64,000 nucleotides of DNA, from assembly GCF_041886205.1 (NCBI RefSeq), contig NZ_CP169029.1. One strand, 5' to 3'. Below the pieces are notes generated by a model. The model did not search any database. It was not told where the DNA came from and saw only the letters and a list, made by a program, of their open reading frames with translations. How positions within the stretch are numbered: the stretch's first letter is position 1; each line of letters starts with the position of its first letter. This DNA is from Escherichia coli (GTDB taxonomy: Bacteria; Pseudomonadota; Gammaproteobacteria; Enterobacterales; Enterobacteriaceae). A program made the translations under genes and the position numbers. This document shows positions 1-40,857 of this stretch, in pieces.

Positions 1-710
1 CTGATTAGCCACTGCACGGTTACGGTCTGCATATTCACCGGGCCAGTAACCCGCACCTTTTCGGGGAGGGATAAGCGCGCTGATTTTCTTACGCCGCAGT
101 TCATCGTGACATAGCCGGGTATCGTAAGCGCCATCGGCGGCGGCTGACCTGATTTTCCGGTGGGTTTGCCGGATTAACCCGGGGAAGGCCTCTGAGTCCG
201 TAACGTTGTTCAGCGACAGGTCAGCGCAGATGATTTCATGTGTTTTACTGTCAACGGCGAGATGCAGCTTACGCCAGATACGGCGGCGTTCCTGGCCATG
301 CTTTTTGACTTTCCACTCGCCTTCACCGAAGACCTTCAGCCCGGTGGAATCAATTACCAGGTGTGCGATTTCACCCCGGGTGGGCGTTTTGAAACTGACA
401 TTAACCGACTTTGCCCGCCTGCTGACACAGCTGTAATCCGGGCAGCGTAGCGGAACGTTCATCAGAGAAAAAATGGAATCAATAAAGCCCTGCGCAGCGC
501 GCAGGGTCAGCCTGAATACGCGTTTAATGACCAGCACAGTCGTGATGGCAAGGTCAGAATAGCGCTGAGGTCTGCCTCGTGAAGAAGGTGTTGCTGACTC
601 ATACCAGGCCTGAATAGCTTCATCATCCAGCCAGAAAGTTATGGAGCCACGGTTGATGAGGGCTTTATTGTAGGTGGGCCAGTTGGTGATTTTGAACTTT
701 TGCTTTGCCA
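1..710 (-). CDS. IS903-family transposase, 3' end truncated by window edge (GTG start at 710)
   Basis: Minus-strand translation VAKQKFKITNWPTYNKALINRGS...DGAYDTRLCHDELRRKKISALIPPRKGAGYWPGEYADRNRAVANQ matches IS903 transposase as recalled; not in ORF track because it runs off the window. Confidence 0.8.
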
Positions 711-788
711 CGGAACGGTCTGCGTTGTCGGGAAGATACGTGATCTGATCCTTCAACTCAGCAAAAGTTCGATTTATTCAACAAAGCC
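1..788 (-). mobile_element. IS903-like insertion sequence (IS5 family), one end only; continues beyond window start
   Basis: Terminal inverted repeat GGCTTTGTTGAATAAATCGAACTTTTGCTGAG read on minus strand at 757-788; transposase ORF immediately inside. Confidence 0.8.
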
Positions 789-843
789 GTGCTTTGGCTG
801 AGGAACAGCATTAAATTCAACCATTTTATTCATAGGGATTAAA

Positions 844-1848
844 ATGCAAGATACAGACGTTTACGTATACATAGGCGATGTTCACCGCTCTGGTCATCAC
901 GACATCACCAAAGCGATTAAAGAAAGAAAAACTAACCATGGTTTACAAAAAAATGTTCTTTTTTGCGTCGCTACCTATGGCGGTGATCCCAGCGCAGGAT
1001 ATAGAATTGGCCGCGCTTTGCAACACAACTATGAACACATCACCGTTCTAGTTGTTGGCCCTTGCAAAAGTGCTGGAACCTTGATGGCTGTCGCCGCTCA
1101 TAAGCTCGTGATTGGTGATATGGGTGAGCTTGGTCCTCTAGACATCCAACTTAAGAAAAATGATGAGATCGGCGAATTGAGCTCGGGCCTTGTTATCGCA
1201 ACGGCGATTGATGAAATAAAAGAGTGCGCTATTTCGACCTTTAGATCATACGTACTTGATATAAAGTACAGAAACCAAATTAGCACGAAGATGTCTGCAG
1301 ATATTGCTGCTAAGCTTACTGAAGCAATCATATCGCCGATGGCCTCACAGATAGACCCCATCAAACTCGGGGAGCATCAACGAGCAATGAACATAGCGCT
1401 TTCCTATGGGGAGCGTTTGAATAGTCACTCGAAAAATCTTAAGGAAAGCTCCTTAGGCAAGTTGATCGCTGGATATCCAGCCCATGGTTTTGTGATAGAC
1501 CGTAAAGAGGCGAGGGAACTATTCAACCATGTTGAGAGTCCTACAGACTTTGCAGCCAACCTGTACGAAGTTCTTGGTGAGATGATTTCGTCAGGCGAAA
1601 TCTCTATCTTCGACAAACCGGTGATTAAAGATTTAACTCCTAAAAAACAATATGAAACAACTAACGCAGAGGAAGATTCCCATGACAACAGCAGAATTCA
1701 GGAAGGAGATGAAATCTCTGACCAAAATTCAGGAAGAGCAGAACCGCCAAGGGATGAACCTGTCCAGGGAAGCGATGGAAAACATGCGGAAATTGAAGAA
1801 GAGGCTGGAACCTTACCAGCAGAGCAACCAGATGAAGGCACTCAGTGA
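844..1848 (+). CDS. ClpP/S49-fold serine peptidase-like protein with long acidic C-terminal tail (cargo gene)
   Basis: 334-aa ORF; N-terminal region with GPCKSAGT motif resembling the ClpP nucleophile loop; C-terminus rich in D/E; AT-rich relative to flanks. Confidence 0.45.
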   Translation: MQDTDVYVYIGDVHRSGHHDITKAIKERKTNHGLQKNVLFCVATYGGDPSAGYRIGRALQHNYEHITVLVVGPCKSAGTLMAVAAHKLVIGDMGELGPLDIQLKKNDEIGELSSGLVIATAIDEIKECAISTFRSYVLDIKYRNQISTKMSADIAAKLTEAIISPMASQIDPIKLGEHQRAMNIALSYGERLNSHSKNLKESSLGKLIAGYPAHGFVIDRKEARELFNHVESPTDFAANLYEVLGEMISSGEISIFDKPVIKDLTPKKQYETTNAEEDSHDNSRIQEGDEISDQNSGRAEPPRDEPVQGSDGKHAEIEEEAGTLPAEQPDEGTQ

Positions 1849-1871
1849 ATATTGTAGTTTCTGATTGAGGA

Positions 1872-1900
1872 CCTCGGCTACTACGCCGGGGTCTCTTTTT
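1872..1900 (+). terminator. Putative intrinsic terminator downstream of 844-1848
   Basis: GC stem ~7 bp (cctcggc / gccgggg) with 6-nt loop followed by tctcttttt. Confidence 0.45.
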
Positions 1901-2280
1901 ACATCACTGGGCAGTCATCAAACTCCGCATTCCTAGCATCGTGATGATGTACGTGATTGCTCCGAATATTGAGTGTGAGTAATTGTAGCCACCACCATCA
2001 TCTGGCAGTGCTTCCGTTCTCCAGATTTATCAGGTGGGACTAAGGATGAGTACGATATCGCTTAATCCTGAAACTCCATTTCAGACAGGGACCCTATTAC
2101 AGACCGAAAGACCACAGATAAGTAGTTTGTTCATAAATTAATGCGTAGAATCAATAACGGCTGGAAATCATTCAATACTCGCACTATCGAAAGTTCGCCA
2201 GCCAGCCGCAGCACGTTCTTGCATACGACGTGGCTGCGGCTTCCAACATTAGACAAATAACTCTTTAAATTGCTTTTAAA

Positions 2281-2844
2281 TTATTTCGTTTGAATGCCAG
2301 TAACAGGAAATCGTTTATATAGGGTTGATAGCCCAACGTTATAGATACGTGCAACATAACGCCGTGATTTCCCTGCCGCTATGAGCGCTCCCATCTGTTG
2401 CCACTGCTCGTCGCTAAACTTCGGTCTACGCCCACCAATCCGGCCTTTGGATCTGGCAATAGCCAAACCAGCTAAAGTTCGCTCGCTATTCAAATCAGAT
2501 TCATACTGCGCAGCAGAAAGAATATTACGGAAATTATAGCGACCACTTGCTGTTTTCAGGTCTACACCATCTGTAATACTCCGAAAATTAACGCCTTTTT
2601 CGTGCAGATTTTGAAACATCAATAGCGCATGTAGCACATTTCTCCCTATCCGATCTAGCTTCCAGACAATCAACTCATCTCCACTTTTCATCACCGAAAT
2701 TAATTCCTTTAACACAGGGCGATTAGCTGTTCTGCCACTGGCATATTCTTCATAAATTCGCTCACAGCCAGCTGACTCAAGTGCAAGACGTTGCAACTCT
2801 GTATCCTGATGATTTGTTGATACACGAACATACCCGTAAATCAT
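2281..2844 (-). CDS. Serine-recombinase DNA invertase (Pin/Gin/Hin family)
   Basis: 187 aa; N-terminus MIYGYVRVSTNHQDTELQ with catalytic-Ser motif; C-terminal HTH; adjacent to inverted crossover sites. Confidence 0.9.
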   Translation of the reverse strand: MIYGYVRVSTNHQDTELQRLALESAGCERIYEEYASGRTANRPVLKELISVMKSGDELIVWKLDRIGRNVLHALLMFQNLHEKGVNFRSITDGVDLKTASGRYNFRNILSAAQYESDLNSERTLAGLAIARSKGRIGGRRPKFSDEQWQQMGALIAAGKSRRYVARIYNVGLSTLYKRFPVTGIQTK

Positions 2845-2903
2845 GAGTGCTTCTCCTGTTGTAAAAACAGGAGAAGAGGCGAAATATCACCTGATTCAGA
2901 AAA

Positions 2904-2929
2904 ATATTTGAAAGGTTGGTTTGGGAGAA
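2904..2929. other. Invertase crossover site A (gix/hix-like 12+2+12)
   Basis: atatttgaaagg-tt-ggtttgggagaa; inverted copy of the site at 4814-4839 (15 nt identical in reverse complement) with matching AA/TT core. Confidence 0.7.
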
Positions 2930-3415
2930 GGCTCAGCGTTACCCGTTGGTGTGCCTGTTCCGTGGCCTTCAGCCACACCACCAACAGGCTGGCTGAAATG
3001 CAACGGTGCACCTTTTTCTGCCGAAGAGTACCCAAAACTGGCAAAGGCTTACCCAAAGTTAAAATTACCGGATTTGCGCGGTGAGTTTATTCGCGGGTGG
3101 GATGATGGGCGAGGTGTTGATTCCGCGAGACTGCTGCTTTCAAGTCAGGCAGCATCTATCCTTGAACATAACCATGAAATGCATGGATGGACAGGGAACC
3201 CACTCATGGCTAGAGATGTTGGTGAATTAGGTACATCATCCGTATTTGCGGTGCAGTTGAGCATTGGCGATGGCGGGTTATTGTATTCGTGGAAGGATGG
3301 GAGTGGAACAACAAATGACAGTAAACGAATGGATAGAACAAATCATGTCAGTTCCGGCGCCGGTGATGGTAGCCCGCGAAACATTGCATTTAACTACATT
3401 GTGAGGGCTGCATAA
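2921..3415 (+). CDS. Alternative tail-fibre C-terminal variable segment (promoterless in current orientation; fused to constant part after inversion)
   Basis: ORF begins inside crossover site A; GLGEGSALPVGVPVPWPSATPPTGWLKCNGAPF tail-fibre C-terminal motifs. Confidence 0.65.
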   Translation: MGEGSALPVGVPVPWPSATPPTGWLKCNGAPFSAEEYPKLAKAYPKLKLPDLRGEFIRGWDDGRGVDSARLLLSSQAASILEHNHEMHGWTGNPLMARDVGELGTSSVFAVQLSIGDGGLLYSWKDGSGTTNDSKRMDRTNHVSSGAGDGSPRNIAFNYIVRAA

Positions 3416-4018
3416 ATGGAACAGGCTATTTTGGGAAAAGACGGTTACGCTTTAAATGATGGGGAAATCATCGTACATAACTATGATGGCGAAACGCGGG
3501 AATATATTTCTACATCAACTGAATATCTCGCTGTCGGAGTCGGTATCCCGGCATGTTCCTGTCTGGATGCACCAGGTACACATAAAGCTGGTTATGCAAT
3601 CTGTCGCTCTGTAGATTTAAATTCATGGGAATATGTGCCAGACCATCGCGGTGAAACGGTCTATAGCACCAAAACAGGAGAATCAAAAGAAATCACCGCT
3701 CCGGGTGATTACCCTGAAAATACAACCACTATCGCCCCATTAACGCCATACGATAAATGGGATGGTGAGAAATGGGTGACCGATACTGAGGCACAGCATA
3801 GCGCCGCAGTAGACGCGGCAGAAGCACAGCGCCAGTCACTGATTGATGCTGCAATGGCTTCCATTAGTCTGATTCAACTGAAATTGCAGGCCGGACGTAA
3901 ACTGACGCAGGCAGAAACAACCAGACTTAACGCTGTGCTGGATTACATTGACGCGGTGACGGCAACAGATACCAGCACCGCGCCGGATGTCATCTGGCCT
4001 GAACTGCCGGAGGCGTAG
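3416..4018 (+). CDS. Tail fibre assembly protein (alternative cassette, Tfa')
   Basis: 200 aa, starts 1 nt after the variable segment; C-terminal ...PDVIWPELPEA typical of Tfa family. Confidence 0.7.
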   Translation: MEQAILGKDGYALNDGEIIVHNYDGETREYISTSTEYLAVGVGIPACSCLDAPGTHKAGYAICRSVDLNSWEYVPDHRGETVYSTKTGESKEITAPGDYPENTTTIAPLTPYDKWDGEKWVTDTEAQHSAAVDAAEAQRQSLIDAAMASISLIQLKLQAGRKLTQAETTRLNAVLDYIDAVTATDTSTAPDVIWPELPEA

Positions 4019-4442
4019 GCCATTCAATATCTGGCGCACTGGAGGTATCAACCAGCTCCAGTGCATCCAGATAATCCAGCCACAAATTATATTGCGCCAG
4101 TTCCTCACCTTTCAGACGACCAATAGCGGCTTTACCGGGCCATTGCTTACTGTTCATGTATTCGTTGGCCTGGTTAATTAGTAGCTGTCTTTCTGATTCA
4201 GTAATTTCAATAAGCTCTTCATGCGTGGGTGGAGGAATATCTGCCCACGCAGGCAGCCCATCATCTCCGGCAATACGGATTTTTCCTTGTGGCGGTTCAG
4301 CCATAAACTCACTGATAATATTTTGATTTACTTCCTTAGCGTCTGATAAATCCCATCCCTCTGATTTATATTTATCAATCATATCCACAGGGAAAAAAGC
4401 ATTATGCCTTGCGCTATAAACATATTCGTTCATATAAATCAC
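3990..4442 (-). CDS. Tail fibre assembly protein (Tfa, active cassette)
   Basis: 150 aa; C-terminal ...PDIEWPTPP; 3' end overlaps convergent tfa' by 29 nt. Confidence 0.75.
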   Translation of the reverse strand: MIYMNEYVYSARHNAFFPVDMIDKYKSEGWDLSDAKEVNQNIISEFMAEPPQGKIRIAGDDGLPAWADIPPPTHEELIEITESERQLLINQANEYMNSKQWPGKAAIGRLKGEELAQYNLWLDYLDALELVDTSSAPDIEWPTPPAVQAR

Positions 4443-4453
4443 CCTGAATAAAA

Positions 4454-5116
4454 TTACTCACCAACAGCCCACCAACTGTAATTCATCGATACCGTGTCGC
4501 TGGTTGATGACGTTCTGTAAGCAGAATTAAAGCCGGTTAACGTTGGGCCTTCTGCAGTCATCACGAACCCTCGCCCAGCGCCTAAAGGCGCACCGCCATC
4601 ACCAGAATGAGTAAGCATGGCGCAGTCCGCTTTTTTGGGGAAAGGGATGCTGAATGTAATTCTCATTGTTTGCGTCGATAATGTCGGCGTAACCGCACCA
4701 CGACCATATTGCAGGATTTTCCCGTTGGGTAATTTCATCCATCCATCACCACTGGCAAAAGAGGCCATGTCCGGTATCTGATTTTCCCCTGTCCCCACAT
4801 CCCGTTTTGCCGCTTCTCCCAAACCAAGGTTTTCGAGAGCCGTTTTCACCGTGCCATCCGATTTGATATCGCCAAACGGATTCTTGCGGCTTAACAGCAG
4901 CGCACGAAGCGCGGTAAGCAGCTGGTCATGCCGCCCCTTCTCCAGGCTGGCACCGGATGCCTCCACCACGCTGCAAAGTTCCTCCTGCAACATGTCAAAG
5001 TAGTCATCATCCAGATCGGTGGCAGGCGTGCCGGTCTGGGGGTTACCACGGGTAAAACCGTTCTTACCCGCGCCGAACTTATCCTTCTGCGCGGTTTTCG
5101 TGTCTATACGATGCAT
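4454..5116 (-). CDS. Tail fibre protein (constant N-terminal part + current variable C-terminus)
   Basis: 220 aa; crossover site B lies in frame inside the gene (encodes [11 protein letters not shown]). Confidence 0.7.
4814..4839. other. Invertase crossover site B (gix/hix-like)
   Basis: ttctcccaaacc-aa-ggttttcgagag, close to recalled gix/hix consensus; inside tail fibre gene. Confidence 0.7.
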
Positions 5117-18194: not shown

Positions 18195-18812
18195 TTACGC
18201 GTTAAGAAGGGTCAGGACGCGTTCACGCGCCATACGTTGATTAATGGCTTTCTGTAGCGCGCCGCTGTTGCGCGCCTCCTGCCATGCTTTCATGGAGCGA
18301 ACAGCCGAGTCAGCCTCCTGATAGGCAGGATATGTCACAGGACTGACATCCAGCAGACGGGAAAAGCGGGTTATCTCGCGAATAACAACCCCGTCCTCAT
18401 CCTGATACCACTCCTCGCCGTCACGGGCGACACGGAAAGCAAAAGATGACTGGTTAATATCTCCACGTTGCATCGGGGCCAGCACCAGATCACGAATGGT
18501 CTGTGTCTCCGGAGCCTGGATGTCATAGCGCAATCCGCGCTCATCAACTGAAAGATTCAGCGTGCCTGCTGCACTACGCCCAAGAATAAAATTAGGATCG
18601 TGGTTAAACAGTGCGCGTACATCATCACCAAGCACATCGTCAAAAGCGCCGGGCCGGATGATTTCGCGGAATGAACCGAATATCAGCTCAGAACGACAGT
18701 CAAACACCGATCCATAACCGATAATGTGCGCCGGGTTATCGTCATGCCGCTCAGCACGCACCTCACCGCTGTAACAACGGATTTCACGGTCATTCATTGG
18801 TTTTTCCCTCAT
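18195..18812 (-). CDS. Prohead protease (HK97 family)
   Basis: 205 aa between portal and capsid. Confidence 0.75.
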   Translation of the reverse strand: MREKPMNDREIRCYSGEVRAERHDDNPAHIIGYGSVFDCRSELIFGSFREIIRPGAFDDVLGDDVRALFNHDPNFILGRSAAGTLNLSVDERGLRYDIQAPETQTIRDLVLAPMQRGDINQSSFAFRVARDGEEWYQDEDGVVIREITRFSRLLDVSPVTYPAYQEADSAVRSMKAWQEARNSGALQKAINQRMARERVLTLLNA

Positions 18813-31239: not shown

Positions 31240-31893
31240 ATGATGAACATGAGTGATCGTATTCGCCAAAGGCGAAAAGAACTGAACCTGACACAACAAG
31301 CACTGGCTGATTTGACTGGTGTGAACCGTGTCACGGTTACTGGATGGGAAAAGGACGACTACCAACCAAATGGAGCCAACCTTCAAGCCCTAGCCAACGC
31401 ACTTAAATGCGATCCTCTGTGGCTTGTTAGCGGAAAAGGCTCGCCTGAACCAAAGATAAATCTAAAACCTGAAATATTCGCAGTTAAAAAAGTCCCCCTA
31501 ATCTCGTGGGTTCAGGCGGGTTCATGGACAATGACGGAGCCTGGTGTCAGGAAAGAAGATGCTGAAGAGTGGGTTTATACTACCGCCCTTGTATCAGAAA
31601 TGGCATTTGCACTACGGGTCCGTGGTGATTCAATGACCAATCCCCTCGGCTCACCATCGATACCAGAAGGTTCTATCGTTATCGTAGAGCCAGATATTAT
31701 TGATACAGAGTGTATTAACGGAAAAATCGTTGTTGCCCATATCAATGGTGGGCAAGAAGCGACACTCAAAAAATTTGTTGAGGACTGGCCGAACAGGTAT
31801 CTCGTCCCACTAAATCCTAACTATAAAACTATTGAATGCGGTGAGAACTGCAGAATAGTTGGTCTTGTCAAACAAGTAATAATGGATTTTTGA
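31240..31893 (+). CDS. CI-like repressor (HTH + LexA-like S24 autopeptidase domain)
   Basis: 217 aa; N-terminal HTH (RRKELNLTQQALADLTGVNRVTVTGWE); C-terminal GDSM serine and downstream Lys typical of S24. Confidence 0.85.
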   Translation: MMNMSDRIRQRRKELNLTQQALADLTGVNRVTVTGWEKDDYQPNGANLQALANALKCDPLWLVSGKGSPEPKINLKPEIFAVKKVPLISWVQAGSWTMTEPGVRKEDAEEWVYTTALVSEMAFALRVRGDSMTNPLGSPSIPEGSIVIVEPDIIDTECINGKIVVAHINGGQEATLKKFVEDWPNRYLVPLNPNYKTIECGENCRIVGLVKQVIMDF

Positions 31894-32009: not shown

Positions 32010-32352
32010 TGTTTTTAGAGTTGTGGTGAATGCGCAGGCTGATGCGCGAAAGACATTGCAGCTATTGCGGAAAAGAGCTGTTCGGCGGGGCAATTAAACG
32101 CCCGTGAGAGTCTGAAATAACCGCAAGCCGGAGATCAGCACCGGTCACCACAACAGCCACTGCTTTGGCGGTACCAGTTTGTACACTTGCTTCCGGCTGG
32201 TACCGCTCTTTTTACAAAACAGAGAAGAGCATCACCGGACGACGGGCTCATAACCCAATCCATCCGGGCGGCTGCCACCGCAGGTGTTCTTCTCTGTTTT
32301 GTGGAGAAACCAACCGACCTTACAGGGTCGATATGATGAGGAGCAGCAAAAT

Positions 32353-32713
32353 GGCTAGCGAACGCAGTACTGATGTGCAGGCATTTATCGGGGAGCTGGA
32401 CGGCGGCGTATTTGAAACCAAAATCGGCGCTGTTCTCAGTGAAGTCGCTTCCGGTGTGATGAACACGAAAACCAAAGGTAAGGTCTCGCTCAACCTGGAA
32501 ATCGAACCGTTTGATGAGAACCGTGTGAAAATCAAACACAAACTCTCATATGTTCGCCCGACTAACCGCGGGAAAATTTCCGAAGAAGACACCACCGAAA
32601 CGCCGATGTATGTCAATCGCGGTGGTCGCCTGACTATTCTGCAGGAAGACCAGGGACAATTACTGACTCTTGCCGGTGAACCTGACGGAAAACTCCGCGC
32701 AGCAGGTCATTAA
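32353..32713 (+). CDS. Hypothetical early protein (YfdP-like size; start uncertain)
   Basis: ORF-track ORF 32165-32713; shortened to internal Met to give ~120 aa. Confidence 0.35.
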
Positions 32714-32778: not shown

Positions 32779-33603
32779 ATGTCTCAGAACTTAGACGCAA
32801 CCGCAATTAATCAAATCCATGCTCTTATTTCTGCTCAGGGTGTTAATGAAATTATCAGTAAGATTGGTGCCGATGCTGTGGCATTGCCTGAGAATTTCCG
32901 CATTCATGATCTGGAAAAATTTAATTTAAATCGCTTCCGTTTCCGTGGCGCGCTTTCCACTGCCAGCATCGATGATTTTACCCGTTATTCTAAAGATCTT
33001 GCAGATGAAGGCACCCGCTGCTTTATCGATGCTGATAATATGCGTGCCGTCAGTGTGCTTAACCTGGGTACTATTGATGAACCAGGTCACGCAGATAACA
33101 CCGCCACTCTCAAACTGAAAAAGACAGCACCGTTCTCTGCTCTGTTGTCTGTTAACGGCGAGCGTAACTCCCAGAAGTCACTGGCAGAATGGATTGAAGA
33201 CTGGGCCGACTACCTTGTAGGCTTTGATGCTAATGGTGACGCTATTCAGGCAACAAAAGCGGCTGCGGCTGTCCGTAAAATCACGATTGAAGCAAACCAG
33301 ACCGCTGATTTTGAAGATAATGACTTCAGCGGCAAACGCTCCCTGATGGAGTCTGTCGAAGCGAAGACCAAAGACATTATGCCAGTGGCATTTGAATTTA
33401 AATGCGTTCCGTTTGAAGGTCTGAAAGAACGTCCGTTTAAATTACGCCTCAGCATTATCACTGGCGATCGTCCTGTACTGGTTCTGCGCATTATTCAGCT
33501 GGAAGCGATGCAGGAAGAAATGGCTAACGAATTTCGTGATCTGCTTGTTGAGAAATTCAAAGACAGCAAAGTAGAAACCTTTATTGGTACTTTCACCGCC
33601 TGA
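32779..33603 (+). CDS. DUF2303-like early protein (YfdQ-like)
   Basis: 274 aa; size and position relative to HD-domain gene match CPS-53 yfdQ-yfdR arrangement as recalled. Confidence 0.45.
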
Positions 33604-33731
33604 TTTCATTACTGCAAATGCCCCTGCGGGGGCATTTATGGAAACGTAATTAACTCAATAATCACCGGATGGTGAGAGCTTCCTTTTAGCAGAATTCAGC
33701 GCGGTGCAGCGCATATAAAGTGGAGAACGAA

Positions 33732-34268
33732 ATGTCATTTATTAAAACTTTTTCCGGGAAGCATTTTTATTATGACAAGATAAATAAAGACGACATCGTG
33801 ATTAACGATATCGCAGTTTCCCTTTCAAATATCTGTCGCTTTGCAGGACATCTTTCACACTTCTACAGCGTCGCCCAGCATGCGGTGCTTTGCAGCCAGC
33901 TGGTACCGCAGGAATTTGCTTTTGAAGCGTTAATGCATGATGCAACAGAAGCATATTGCCAGGACATCCCCGCTCCACTGAAACGCCTTCTTCCTGACTA
34001 TAAACGGATGGAAGAAAAAATAGATGCCGTAATCCGTGAGAAATACGGGTTACCCCAGGTTATGAGCACGCCTGTGAAATATGCCGATCTCATCATGCTG
34101 GCAACCGAACGCCGCGATCTCGGGCTTGATGATGGCTCTTTCTGGCCTGTACTGGAAGGTATCCCGGCAACAGAGATGTTCAACGTGATTCCACTGGCTC
34201 CAGGCCATGCCTACGGGATGTTTATGGAACGCTTTAACGAATTATCGGAGTTACGCAAATGCGCATGA
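33732..34268 (+). CDS. HD-domain 5'-deoxynucleotidase-like protein (YfdR-like)
   Basis: HD motif (H...LMHDATEAY); ~178 aa from MSFIKT. Confidence 0.6.
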   Translation: MSFIKTFSGKHFYYDKINKDDIVINDIAVSLSNICRFAGHLSHFYSVAQHAVLCSQLVPQEFAFEALMHDATEAYCQDIPAPLKRLLPDYKRMEEKIDAVIREKYGLPQVMSTPVKYADLIMLATERRDLGLDDGSFWPVLEGIPATEMFNVIPLAPGHAYGMFMERFNELSELRKCA

Positions 34269-37356: not shown

Positions 37357-37388
37357 TGAATAAACCCATCCAAAGATGGGTTTATTCA
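37357..37388. terminator. Bidirectional hairpin terminator between convergent genes
   Basis: tgaataaacccatc-caaa-gatgggtttattca, 14-bp perfect stem. Confidence 0.6.
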
Positions 37389-37852
37389 TAATGTTGAAGA
37401 GCAGCGAGTATCAGTTTTTTATGCCGTTTAACCATAGTTTTAGATATCTCAACTGCACATCGAACTTGTCTCATACAATGATCTGTAATGCGACCTTTTA
37501 GCACGTCACCATATTGGATGGCTATTTTCTCTTTAATAATTTCAAGATCGAAAGCAGCATGAGCCTCAATGCAATTAACAAATGAGTCCCATTTAAGAAA
37601 ATCATGGTCCTCTCTATTAATTTCGACCTGACAAGCCATAAGATCATTGTTTCTCTTAATAAATTCATTTATATCTGAATTTATTAGAAGAACTAAAAGA
37701 GGTTCACAGCAAACAACCACCATATATTTTACTTTAGGTGGGGTCGTAAAATCACAATGAAGATACAATACATCACCGGGTGATATACCTCTTTCACGAC
37801 TAAAATTAGCCTTAAAATCAGGAGGGAAACAATCACCCAGCATAAGTATCAA
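37382..37852 (-). CDS. Unknown 156-aa protein, downstream partner of Panacea-domain gene (candidate toxin/effector)
   Basis: 4-nt overlap with upstream gene; no recognisable family by eye; no predicted TM helix. Confidence 0.4.
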   Translation of the reverse strand: MILMLGDCFPPDFKANFSRERGISPGDVLYLHCDFTTPPKVKYMVVVCCEPLLVLLINSDINEFIKRNNDLMACQVEINREDHDFLKWDSFVNCIEAHAAFDLEIIKEKIAIQYGDVLKGRITDHCMRQVRCAVEISKTMVKRHKKLILAALQHYE

Positions 37853-38430
37853 TATCCGTTCTTCAGATAATCCAGTATTAATTTGCTATTTTTTAGCTGT
37901 GCAACTATCGATTCCAAAGACATCTCACCATTGTGATCTGCCTGTTCCCATGCCGCGTCATGGCTCATGGTTCTGATAGCTTCAAAGGACATGTTTCCAA
38001 GCATCGCGATAGACTTATCAATACACTCTAAATCTGAGTCACTAAAAAAGTCTTCATCAGCTTCACGGCTCGGCACAATCGTCATACCTGATACAGAAAA
38101 TGCTTTTCGCACAGAATCGACATCACAACCATTAGGAATGTAACGTCCATCTCCACGAGCAATTTTTATAATATCGTATGTGTTGCTTGCTACAGGCCCA
38201 TCCTTCATAGCGTTATAGTGATCGCCCGTTATGAGGCGTCCAAAACTTTCAAGGTGAAACCTGTCAGCATAATAAAGAATTTTTCCGACATGATAGATAT
38301 CTGGGATCGGTGCTTTAGAGGCGACGTACAGAATGGCCTCTAAAGCCTTTTCTGAATCAAACCTTACATTTAGCATCAATACACCCTTCATCCAAACAAC
38401 ATCGTCAAGCTCTGGCAAATGCAACCGCAT
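37849..38430 (-). CDS. Panacea/DUF4065 (SocA-like antitoxin) domain protein; true start may be internal Met
   Basis: Segment ALEAILYVASK...VGKILYYADRFHLESFGRLITGDHYNAMKDGPVASNTY fits the Panacea signature (LQKLLYYAQ...GPV) as recalled. Confidence 0.55.
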   Translation of the reverse strand: MRLHLPELDDVVWMKGVLMLNVRFDSEKALEAILYVASKAPIPDIYHVGKILYYADRFHLESFGRLITGDHYNAMKDGPVASNTYDIIKIARGDGRYIPNGCDVDSVRKAFSVSGMTIVPSREADEDFFSDSDLECIDKSIAMLGNMSFEAIRTMSHDAAWEQADHNGEMSLESIVAQLKNSKLILDYLKNGY

Positions 38431-38549
38431 CCGCCTTCTACAATCTTAAAGTCTTCACCTACGCTAGGTCAATTGAAGTGATGAGCAAATGATGCTTTCT
38501 AAGAAGAACAGGTTCCCAATAGGCTCCCACAAAGTGTATAACTACTTGT

Positions 38550-38675
38550 TTTTCAAAAACGGTACATCCTATCGAGCATTGGTGCAACGCTAAACCGACC
38601 ACTCCAGTGAACGTCAGTTTTTTCAGGCATTGCGCTGGTTTGGTTGATTTTTTGCATTTCAGAATTACCGTGCAT
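38550..38675 (-). pseudogene. dusA: Displaced 5' end of dusA (first ~35 codons) at the prophage attachment junction
   Basis: Minus-strand translation MHGNSEMQKINQTSAMPEKTDVHWSGRFSVAPMLD matches recalled DusA N-terminus, then diverges (RMYRF-stop). Confidence 0.6.
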
Positions 38676-38969
38676 TTTCAAATGTAGAGATTATTTTATC
38701 GATATATCATGGGGTTATGTTATTCAGCATCACTGTTCAGGAGGCTCAATAGCGGGGTACTATACCATAACAACAGGAAGCGCCTGTCTCATTGCAAAAG
38801 AAAATTGAGATCCTCTCAAGGCATGAAGCTCTCACGAAGTGATGGAAATAATCTTATTAGCCGTTAACTTTGTTAAGGCCAATGATAAACAATCCAGGTT
38901 CGACGATAAATAAAAAATCACACATTAAACTCCGGTGATATCTCCCCCTGCTAATAGCATTGATAGAGA

Positions 38970-39003
38970 AAAAAGAACCCAATAAATATTGGGTCCTTTT
39001 ATA
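38970..39003 (-). terminator. Intrinsic terminator downstream of 39038-40024
   Basis: minus strand ggacccaata-ttt-attgggttc hairpin followed by ttttttctc. Confidence 0.55.
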
Positions 39004-39037
39004 TAATGCCTTCCATACTATCGAAGAACTTCACATA

Positions 39038-40024
39038 TTATTTCTCCGATTTAACCCCGAACAAATCATAAATTAATTTAGAAGTGTCTGTAAGTATTTT
39101 AATCTCTTCCTTTGAGGTTGGGTCAAACGACTTCGCGAAGCTAATTAATTGTGGTGCAGCATCTCGCATTTTGCTTAAAATATCAGGATCGAGCGTTCCT
39201 TCATTCACCAGATGTGACATCTTATCCAGATAGCCATCAAAATTCATTTCTCCCCCATCAGCCAGACGCTTCATCTCTCCCAGGTACTTCTTCATATCAC
39301 GTTGAGATAATTTTTCAAACTGAGCTTTCAGGTAGCTCTCATTATTTTCATTAATATACACTGTTTCTGATAAATCTGCGTAGGCACTAGAATATGAAAG
39401 TGAAATTAACAGCGAAGCAAATAATTTTAAGCTGTTGTCATCATGTTCCTGGCAGGCATTAACAAACGTTAAAAAACCAGAACCTATTGCTTGAAAATGT
39501 ATATTCGCTAAAGGTTCATTATCCTTAGATTCCTCATAAAATAGCTGAACCGTGGAGGGAAGGTCATTCTTAGTTTCTACATCAAAAGTACATTGTTCAA
39601 TGGGCATTGCATCTTTATTATCCCCAAGATTACATATACTATTAATCGCGAAATGAAAAATAGCCCGGTCAACAACTGATGCAATAAAGTCACGATCGTT
39701 TAAATCCTCATCAGTGCAATCGTCAATATACTTATTGACCCACATTTTGAGATCATTTATTTGCTTAAGTAACATCACATTTTTTTTACGTGCATGCCAT
39801 AAATTATGCGTGATTCGTTGAATAAACAAATCTATTTTTGCAATAATTATATCCCGATGACGCAGCGCTGCATAATCAATAGATTTACCATATATATTAT
39901 TTAATTTACCTTTGATTGAACCTCTATTATCTAATTTATCTTTGATTGCATCTTCATTATCGAATTGATTTGAATTGAGTGTTTTATTAAAGTATCTAGT
40001 TGCACCGGGTATTATCTTCAACAT
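39038..40024 (-). CDS. AT-rich hypothetical protein on host side of att junction (occupies yjbL/yjbM position next to zur)
   Basis: 328-aa ORF, Asn/Lys/Asp-rich, low GC. Confidence 0.4.
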
Positions 40025-40341
40025 GATTCATCTACCTTTTTTGTCGTACCGTGTCCTCCTTATAATTCTTTTGCCATCTGGTCACTATCAAAAATCGCTC
40101 ATAATTTCTGAACTACAGGTATGCGTTTAAACCCAGTTAAATAAATAGCGAGTTAACTTGAAGCAATTTATTTAAAAATGAATTATTAATTATTATCGTG
40201 TTGATAATGGTACGACAAGGCAACACAACACCTTACCTACAAAACAGAAAATCAACATTACGGCAACAATAAGGGTTCTCGGTGTTTTTCCTGGAACATG
40301 GTAAAGTAAGGACATTCTTAACCCCCACTTTGAGGTGCCCG

Positions 40342-40857
40342 ATGGAAAAGACCACAACGCAGGAGTTATTAGCGCAGGCTGAAAAAATCTGCGCGCAGCG
40401 TAATGTGCGCCTGACCCCACAGCGCCTGGAAGTGTTGCGCCTGATGAGTCTGCAGGATGGCGCTATCAGCGCTTATGATCTGCTTGATTTACTGCGCGAA
40501 GCTGAACCGCAAGCCAAGCCGCCAACGGTTTATCGCGCGCTGGATTTTCTGCTTGAGCAAGGTTTTGTGCATAAGGTGGAATCCACCAACAGTTATGTGC
40601 TCTGTCATCTGTTCGACCAGCCCACCCATACGTCAGCCATGTTTATTTGCGATCGCTGCGGCGCGGTGAAAGAAGAGTGTGCTGAAGGCGTGGAAGACAT
40701 CATGCATACGTTGGCGGCAAAAATGGGTTTTGCCCTGCGGCATAATGTGATTGAAGCACATGGGCTCTGTGCGGCATGCGTGGAAGTGGAAGCGTGTCGT
40801 CATCCTGAACAGTGCCAGCATGATCACTCTGTGCAGGTGAAAAAGAAACCGCGTTAA
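40342..40857 (+). CDS. zur: Zinc uptake regulator Zur
   Basis: 171 aa from MEKTTTQELL...; Fur-family; ORF-track start 40282 is an upstream extension. Confidence 0.9.
   Translation: MEKTTTQELLAQAEKICAQRNVRLTPQRLEVLRLMSLQDGAISAYDLLDLLREAEPQAKPPTVYRALDFLLEQGFVHKVESTNSYVLCHLFDQPTHTSAMFICDRCGAVKEECAEGVEDIMHTLAAKMGFALRHNVIEAHGLCAACVEVEACRHPEQCQHDHSVQVKKKPR

Follow-up and report, generated by a model that had tools for sequence, protein, structure and literature searches.

We analyzed a 64,000-nucleotide (nt) stretch of Escherichia coli DNA (contig NZ_CP169029.1 of assembly GCF_041886205.1; hereafter the window), in which a prophage located at dusA carries, next to the insertion sequence IS903B, a gene for a 334-residue protein (844-1848, plus strand). 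The product of this gene is an intact and soluble ClpP-fold peptidase of the SDH type, and it is probably active. It belongs to a large, uncharacterized, mostly phage-borne and divergent clade (PHROG 21683 and 11747), which has a long disordered tail. Comparison of gene neighborhoods indicates that members of this family preferentially occupy the slot directly downstream of phage repressor genes, and that this slot is a cargo hotspot. It is quite possible, and it is the reading that we tentatively favor from these gene contexts, that the role of the family is protective, i.e., superinfection exclusion or abortive infection by proteolysis.

A ClpP-fold serine peptidase with an acidic tail

The reading frame begins with ATG, and the folded domain corresponds to residues 1 to ~265 (nt 844-1638). 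A first-pass annotation of this region had described a stand-alone gene for a 334-residue ClpP-fold peptidase with the loop GPCKSAGT, and this was confirmed, the loop being located at residues 72-79. Searches returned 2850 homologues at an E-value of 1e-3 or lower, and the identical protein is frequent among public assemblies; thus, this is a real gene and not a chance open reading frame (ORF). The gene had also been called AT-rich. Its G+C content is indeed lower than that of the prophage, but the difference is only mild (44.7% vs 53% for window positions 5000-30000, which represent most of the prophage). The gene has, as proposed, its own intrinsic terminator: a hairpin at 1869-1894 (plus strand; the whole feature spans 1869-1900) begins 20 nt past the stop codon and has a 10-bp stem with 7 G-C pairs, which is followed by CTTTTT. 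Neither a transmembrane segment nor a signal peptide was present in the protein (the maximum 19-residue Kyte-Doolittle mean was 1.59), and therefore it should be cytoplasmic. In the AlphaFold model, the N-terminus leads directly into the first beta strand.

This model, which was built on 150 homologues, has a predicted local distance difference test score (pLDDT) of ~97 across residues 1-270. The protein has the ClpP alpha/beta fold, with a three-helix insertion at residues 115-196. The top structural matches in BFVD were giant-virus proteins named "serine dehydrogenase proteinase" (E-values from 1e-9 to 1e-7, template modeling scores of 0.45-0.6 and ~250 aligned columns), and AFDB contained hundreds of uncharacterized "SppA protein" or "serine dehydrogenase proteinase" entries from Proteobacteria and beyond.

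Residue conservation was analyzed in a sample of 150 homologues with 34-81% identity to the query. Eight residues (G46, G47, S76, D100, Q102, S114, Y188 and H214) were invariant in all 150 sequences, and Lys75, beside Ser76, was conserved in 142 of them. The first-pass annotation had considered that a catalytic Ser/His/Asp arrangement might be lacking; the invariant Ser76, Asp100 and His214 (codons 1069-1071, 1141-1143 and 1483-1485, plus strand) argue for the presence of such an arrangement. The family profile places Ser76 onto the active-site serine motif of the 1510-N protease and ClpP (AASAGT or AASMGT). As expected for ClpP/crotonase-fold peptidases (clan SK), this nucleophilic Ser belongs to the conserved loop that comes after strand 4, and a GG oxyanion motif (G46 and G47) is present. 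Only the profile reached these two structures, as a search of PDB sequences with the single protein gave no match. Asp100 lies within a GELGPLDIQ segment and His214 within YPxHGFVIDRxEA. When these motifs are read against ClpP, Asp100 is at the position of the ClpP His, and His214 is at the position of the ClpP Asp. The SDH family is defined by, and named for, the catalytic order Ser, Asp, His, and the putative order Ser76-Asp100-His214 fits this type (PF01972-like). The ClpP/S49-like nucleophile loop of the first-pass annotation was thus correct with regard to Ser76 in GPCKSAGT, but the enzyme appears to be neither a classical S14 peptidase nor a Ser-Lys peptidase of the S49 type.

In the profile searches that had been proposed as a check, the curated models recognized the N-terminal core only. 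PF01972 (SDH_protease) was the best Pfam match (independent E-value 9.4e-6, 25.3 bits), covering residues 37-106 only, and the matches to NfeD1b_N and CLP_protease (E-value 0.031 for the latter) were weaker. The NCBIfam model NF047768, "SDH family Clp fold serine proteinase", scored 35.9 bits against a cut-off of 250 and covered residues 20-106 only. The curated SDH models therefore leave uncovered the helical middle region and the segment with His214. PHROG 21683, which is annotated as of unknown function, matched the protein from end to end with 659 bits. Identical and near-identical proteins are named "SDH family Clp fold serine proteinase" in RefSeq and "SppA protein" in older records. Since the NF047768 score is far under its cut-off, the RefSeq name must derive from another rule. 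The protein is thus already catalogued in RefSeq and PHROGs within a known enzyme superfamily, and the sequence itself is not new.

The window protein shares with SDH proteinases (PF01972 and NF047768) the ClpP/crotonase fold, the TxGG oxyanion motif and a nucleophile Ser in a loop of small residues, as well as an Asp (GELGPLD) at the ClpP His position and an invariant His farther downstream. It differs from them in scoring under the NF047768 cut-off and in matching the models over residues ~20-106 only. Searches of PDB with the sequence and the profile found no solved structure for the SDH family, and literature searches found no paper with a published function for any of its members. In comparison with ClpP (MEROPS S14), the order of the triad is swapped according to the motif reading, with Asp100 instead of His in the MIHQP-type segment; in addition, the window protein has the three-helix insertion and a tail of 65 residues, and no AAA+ partner gene is located nearby. 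The NfeD/STOPP 1510-N protease and SppA (S49-type) are membrane-anchored enzymes with a Ser-Lys dyad, whereas the window protein has no hydrophobic segment and has the invariant Asp and His.

The C-terminal tail (residues 270-334; nt 1651-1845, plus strand) is acidic and disordered, as the first-pass annotation had stated. It contains 20 Asp/Glu versus 4 Lys/Arg residues and has a pI of 4.05, and pLDDT is 54-63 over residues 271-334. A tail of at least 30 residues beyond the fold was present in 132 of the 150 homologues (median 60), including 73 net acidic, 50 near neutral and 9 basic tails, and disorder-promoting residues accounted for 82%. Judged from this alignment, the tail is a family trait, though its sequence is not conserved. 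One homologue (P0103) lacks the tail and has instead an acidic low-complexity extension at the N-terminus; another (P0128) has TEVETEV repeats at the N-terminus too, and P0119 is also among the homologues with an acidic N-terminal low-complexity segment. These three proteins suggest that an acidic disordered appendage is under selection at either end. No globular domain fusions were seen in longer homologues, whose extensions were of low complexity only. The title of PDB entry 4kwb (SppA) records C-termini bound in the active sites, which suggests, as an analogy and nothing beyond that, a possible autoinhibition by the tail.

Position of the family in phages and prophages

Gene neighborhoods were examined in 80 IMG/VR loci containing homologues (35-100% identity). 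The upstream neighbor was defined as the nearest ORF of at least 100 residues, and this yielded 55 distinct proteins. According to Pfam, Peptidase_S24 was present in 31 and HTH_3 in 24-28 of these 55 neighbors; the 31 are CI/LexA-type repressors encoded on the same strand. Counting S24 repressors with the regular expression G.SM.P (23 of 67) gave an under-count, and the Pfam count was used instead. A homologue directly downstream of a same-strand CI-type repressor was observed in Klebsiella, in lambdoid prophages of E. coli and in Bartonella. Among 36 repressor-protease pairs, a terminator-like hairpin was found within the gap between the two genes in 2 cases and within 150 nt past the protease gene in 31 (68 of 80 when all loci were considered). 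For example, the gene order in locus L007 is cII, cro, cI, protease, terminator, PL-like promoter and N. The position of the protease gene downstream of cI in this locus is that of rexAB on the lambda map.

By sequence comparison, the pairing between protease and repressor is not specific. Proteases that are 100% identical follow repressors that are only 25-36% identical, a 98%-identical repressor is paired with a 47%-identical protease, and the Spearman rho between protease and repressor was 0.10. Moreover, an identical 933W-type repressor (WP_000428098.1) precedes three alternative cargos before N in the E. coli prophages L113, L114 and L115. These are the SDH protease; a DUF3024 protein with a hypothetical protein and a Ser/Thr kinase; and a HigB-family toxin with a helix-turn-helix protein and a hypothetical protein. 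We take the kinase to be Stk of 933W. Stk has been described as a prophage abortive-infection system which blocks HK97 (PMC6356687). With three cargos behind one repressor, the slot has the appearance of a natural and clear-cut hotspot for cargo. Homologues of the protease share their position after cI, on the same strand and before the terminator, PL and N, with two prophage abortive-infection systems, RexAB of lambda and Stk of 933W. However, the protease has no sequence or fold relation to RexA/B or Stk, and the window copy lies outside this slot. No published account that links the family to the repressor slot was found in literature searches.

The family also occurs in other contexts, several of which are likewise typical locations for cargo: a P2-like Burkholderia phage has its homologue adjacent to int, in Edwardsiella the gene lies in the nin region together with a HigBA-like pair, and in a Klebsiella phage it is close to dinI and an XRE/ImmA pair. 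UmuC-like neighbors were present at two IMG/VR loci. The genes downstream of the protease homologues vary in size and strand, with no conserved antitoxin-like partner, and most of the contexts other than that of the window have no dinI.

The window prophage is inserted at dusA, and its opposite side is flanked by zur, dinF, lexA and plsB. In public assemblies this locus has the order dusA, integrase, dinI-like gene and protease gene, followed by either a lambda-type tail or an invertase with a Mu-type baseplate, and the window copy belongs to the latter version. An intact counterpart, locus L019, matches window positions 789-2931 at 99.86% identity and has no insertion sequence. In this locus, a 62-nt direct repeat (87% identical; L019 7735-7796 and 9338-9399) brackets a 1.6-kb cassette containing the protease gene. 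The repeat is the dinI terminator region, and its second copy, at 2181-2242 of the window, is the right edge of the cassette. This copy is part of a longer duplicate of the dinI 3' end and terminator region (2117-2242, plus strand), which matches the dinI flanks in locus L001 and in phages. We constructed an empty site by joining dinI directly to the invertase, and 64 complete E. coli genomes matched it over at least 80% of its length; in enterotoxigenic E. coli H10407, whose prophage has such an empty site, dinI and the invertase are 143 nt apart. The protease allele of the window was detected in 20 of 5426 complete E. coli genomes. With its lower G+C, own terminator, flanking repeats and absence from sibling prophages, the gene is an optional, self-contained single-gene cargo ("moron"). 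The first-pass annotation had placed it in a prophage cargo position distal to an invertase, which agrees well with an optional cassette beside the Pin-type DNA invertase gene (2281-2844, minus strand; phrog_125, E-value 8e-73).

Candidate functions of the peptidase

The protective reading implies that family members would be transcribed together with the repressor in lysogens and would protect the lysogen by superinfection exclusion or abortive infection. The protease might cleave a protein of the incoming phage, or a host protein once infection is sensed, and the acidic tail might serve as a regulatory or substrate-recruiting appendage. Exclusion or abortive infection gains indirect support from the fact that the repressor-downstream slot is common to an Stk-like kinase and a HigBA module.

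A more detailed version of this proposal, which we regard as somewhat doubtful, is that the family represents a new single-gene, protease-based abortive infection or exclusion system, co-transcribed with CI in many proteobacterial prophages, in which the appendage has a defined role. The acidic disordered appendage, which most members have at the C-terminus and some at the N-terminus, could keep the SDH-type active site latent by acting as a pseudo-substrate. Alternatively, it could mimic nucleic acid and thereby bring basic DNA-binding proteins of the incoming phage to the protease for cleavage. If the general protective reading holds, a widespread prophage defense gene would have been missed by defense catalogues such as PADLOC, and a first biological role would be available for the SDH branch of ClpP-fold proteases, for which literature searches yielded no published substrate. 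Prophages in which one 933W-type repressor is combined with the protease, an Stk-like kinase or HigBA would offer natural, isogenic-like comparisons, and a systematic survey of the genes that follow cI could bring further cargo to light.

It should be noted that several points weigh against a protective role. The 334-residue protein matched none of the families in PADLOC-DB 2.0 at an E-value of 1 or lower, and literature searches found neither an experiment nor a publication on this protease family. Some homologues are chromosomal and have no phage genes near them, as in Neisseria dumasiana, and the window copy itself lies between dinI and the invertase and not beside a repressor. In addition, toxin-antitoxin modules and other cargo are also found in the slot, so position alone is no proof of defense.

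Another candidate is a host-benefit or addiction function without a role in phage defense. The protein could be a peptidase for stress responses or quality control, or a protease whose toxicity stabilizes the prophage. The stand-alone gene with its own terminator, the location in cargo slots that are common to toxin-antitoxin modules, the chromosomal, non-phage copies and the lack of a PADLOC match would all be consistent with such a function. However, the family is overwhelmingly phage-borne and occurs where exclusion genes are typically found, the protease has no conserved antitoxin-like partner beside it, and a general housekeeping benefit is difficult to reconcile with its rarity in E. coli (this allele was detected in 20 of 5426 genomes). 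Overall, this function appears rather unlikely.

The association with repressors also raises the question of whether the protease is a partner in the lysis-lysogeny switch, acting on a CI/LexA-type repressor or its fragments as an anti-repressor or commitment factor. There are analogies for such a role: ImmA cleaves ImmR in ICEBs1, and ClpXP clears LexA fragments. The finding that 31 of 55 upstream neighbors are S24/HTH repressors would fit, as would the SOS-themed surroundings, i.e., dinI with two LexA boxes, the remnant of an S24 pseudogene downstream of the window gene and the UmuC-like neighbors in two loci. However, protease and repressor do not co-vary, and the identical 933W-type repressor works with wholly different cargo in the slot. 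Many copies are also far from any repressor (CI of the window prophage is 29 kb away), and the gene is absent from sibling dusA prophages. With no co-variation, interchangeable cargo and copies remote from repressors, a switch-partner role is unlikely.

A counter-defense or establishment factor seems still harder to accept. In this case a host protein with an immune or regulatory function would be degraded to the advantage of the phage itself, e.g., while lysogeny is being established from PRE/PRM. Since cI is expressed during establishment as well, its presumed co-transcription with the protease gene is in line with this idea, and phage anti-restriction proteins that mimic DNA often contain acidic disordered segments. 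However, temperate phages usually express their anti-defense genes early in the lytic cycle, whereas here the gene is upstream of the PL-like promoter with a terminator in between; the window copy is at the prophage end, behind late genes; and no similarity to known anti-defense proteins was found.

The weakest candidate is a spare structural protease for prohead or scaffold maturation, a possibility that had been raised in the first-pass annotation in the form of a prohead protease paralogue and that is extremely improbable: against weak matches to ClpP-related head maturation families (NF045542, 28.7 bits vs a cut-off of 120; phrog_1684, E-value 2.6e-6; phrog_53, E-value 0.012) stand the end-to-end assignment to PHROG 21683, the absence of the gene from sibling prophages, its location beside repressors elsewhere and its own terminator. 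A structural role was excluded because an HK97-type prohead protease gene (18198-18812; phrog_80, E-value 6.5e-72) is already present between the portal and major head genes of this prophage; the gene under study is at the prophage end, 16 kb from it and outside the head module.

IS903B and other neighbors of the gene

The left part of IS903B (IS5 family) occupies positions 1-788 on the minus strand, with 99.3-99.6% identity to annotated IS903B copies and a terminal inverted repeat at 770-788. As the first-pass annotation had noted for an IS903-like element, it ends 55 nt before the ATG, native DNA beginning at 789. The same annotation had called the element truncated. However, the transposase gene points away from the protease gene, and its frame continues without a stop over 237 codons from 711 to window position 1 and then past the window edge; thus, it is the edge that cuts the element, and nothing indicates a truncation.

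The surviving native 5' region of the protease gene (789-843, plus strand) has 55 nt and contains an AGGGA ribosome-binding site at 834-838. Alignment to the intact locus placed the junction between IS903B and native DNA, at window position 789, at L019 7946. The intergenic region between dinI and the protease gene has 269 nt in L019, of which 214 nt were displaced by the insertion. The suggestion that an upstream partner gene had been removed by the insertion was not borne out, since the upstream neighbor in intact loci is the dinI-like gene, which has its own terminator hairpin by sequence reading and two perfect LexA boxes (CTGT-N8-ACAG) upstream of it (L019 7424-7439 and 7452-7467).

Neither a LexA box nor a sigma-70 consensus promoter was found before the protease gene in the intact locus. 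In the window, no consensus plus-strand promoter was detected in the remaining 55 nt, and no hybrid or outward promoter was detected at the IS903B end. The window copy may be silenced or mis-expressed, because IS903B severed most of the native upstream DNA, and an altered expression through this insertion, which had been proposed in the first-pass annotation, is plausible. The IS903B-protease junction was found in 0 of 5426 complete E. coli genomes. For the strain represented by the window, this is an ordinary finding of a rare accessory gene with an insertion sequence in front of it.

Downstream of the protease gene and convergent with it, a non-coding remnant without an open frame is located at 1899-2072 (minus strand). 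When coordinates were transferred by alignment, its counterpart in avian pathogenic E. coli (APEC) O78 was a RefSeq pseudogene for a frameshifted, N-terminally truncated S24 peptidase. The remnant showed no significant similarity to the repressors that are paired with the protease elsewhere.

Beside the invertase gene, window positions 2845-5116 contain ORFs for tail fibers and tail-fiber assembly proteins, two on the plus strand (2921-3415 and 3416-4018) and two on the minus strand (3990-4442 and 4454-5116). These opposed ORFs look like an invertible host-range switch of the Mu G-segment type.

The CI-type repressor gene of the prophage (31240-31893, plus strand; phrog_4), which is 29 kb from the protease gene, is followed by co-oriented ORFs without an assigned function at 32165-32713, 32779-33603 (phrog_210) and 33720-34268. 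None of these three matched PADLOC or NCBIfam, and the repressor-downstream slot of this prophage may hold other uncharacterized cargo. The right end of the prophage, which precedes zur (40282-40857), contains two overlapping minus-strand ORFs (37382-37852 and 37849-38430; phrog_1281, annotated as unknown) and after them an ORF of 328 residues (39038-40024; phrog_29005, also annotated as unknown). RefSeq relatives show a "Panacea domain-containing protein" and DUF2713 within 37382-40024, so a toxin-antitoxin-like cargo is possible in this region.

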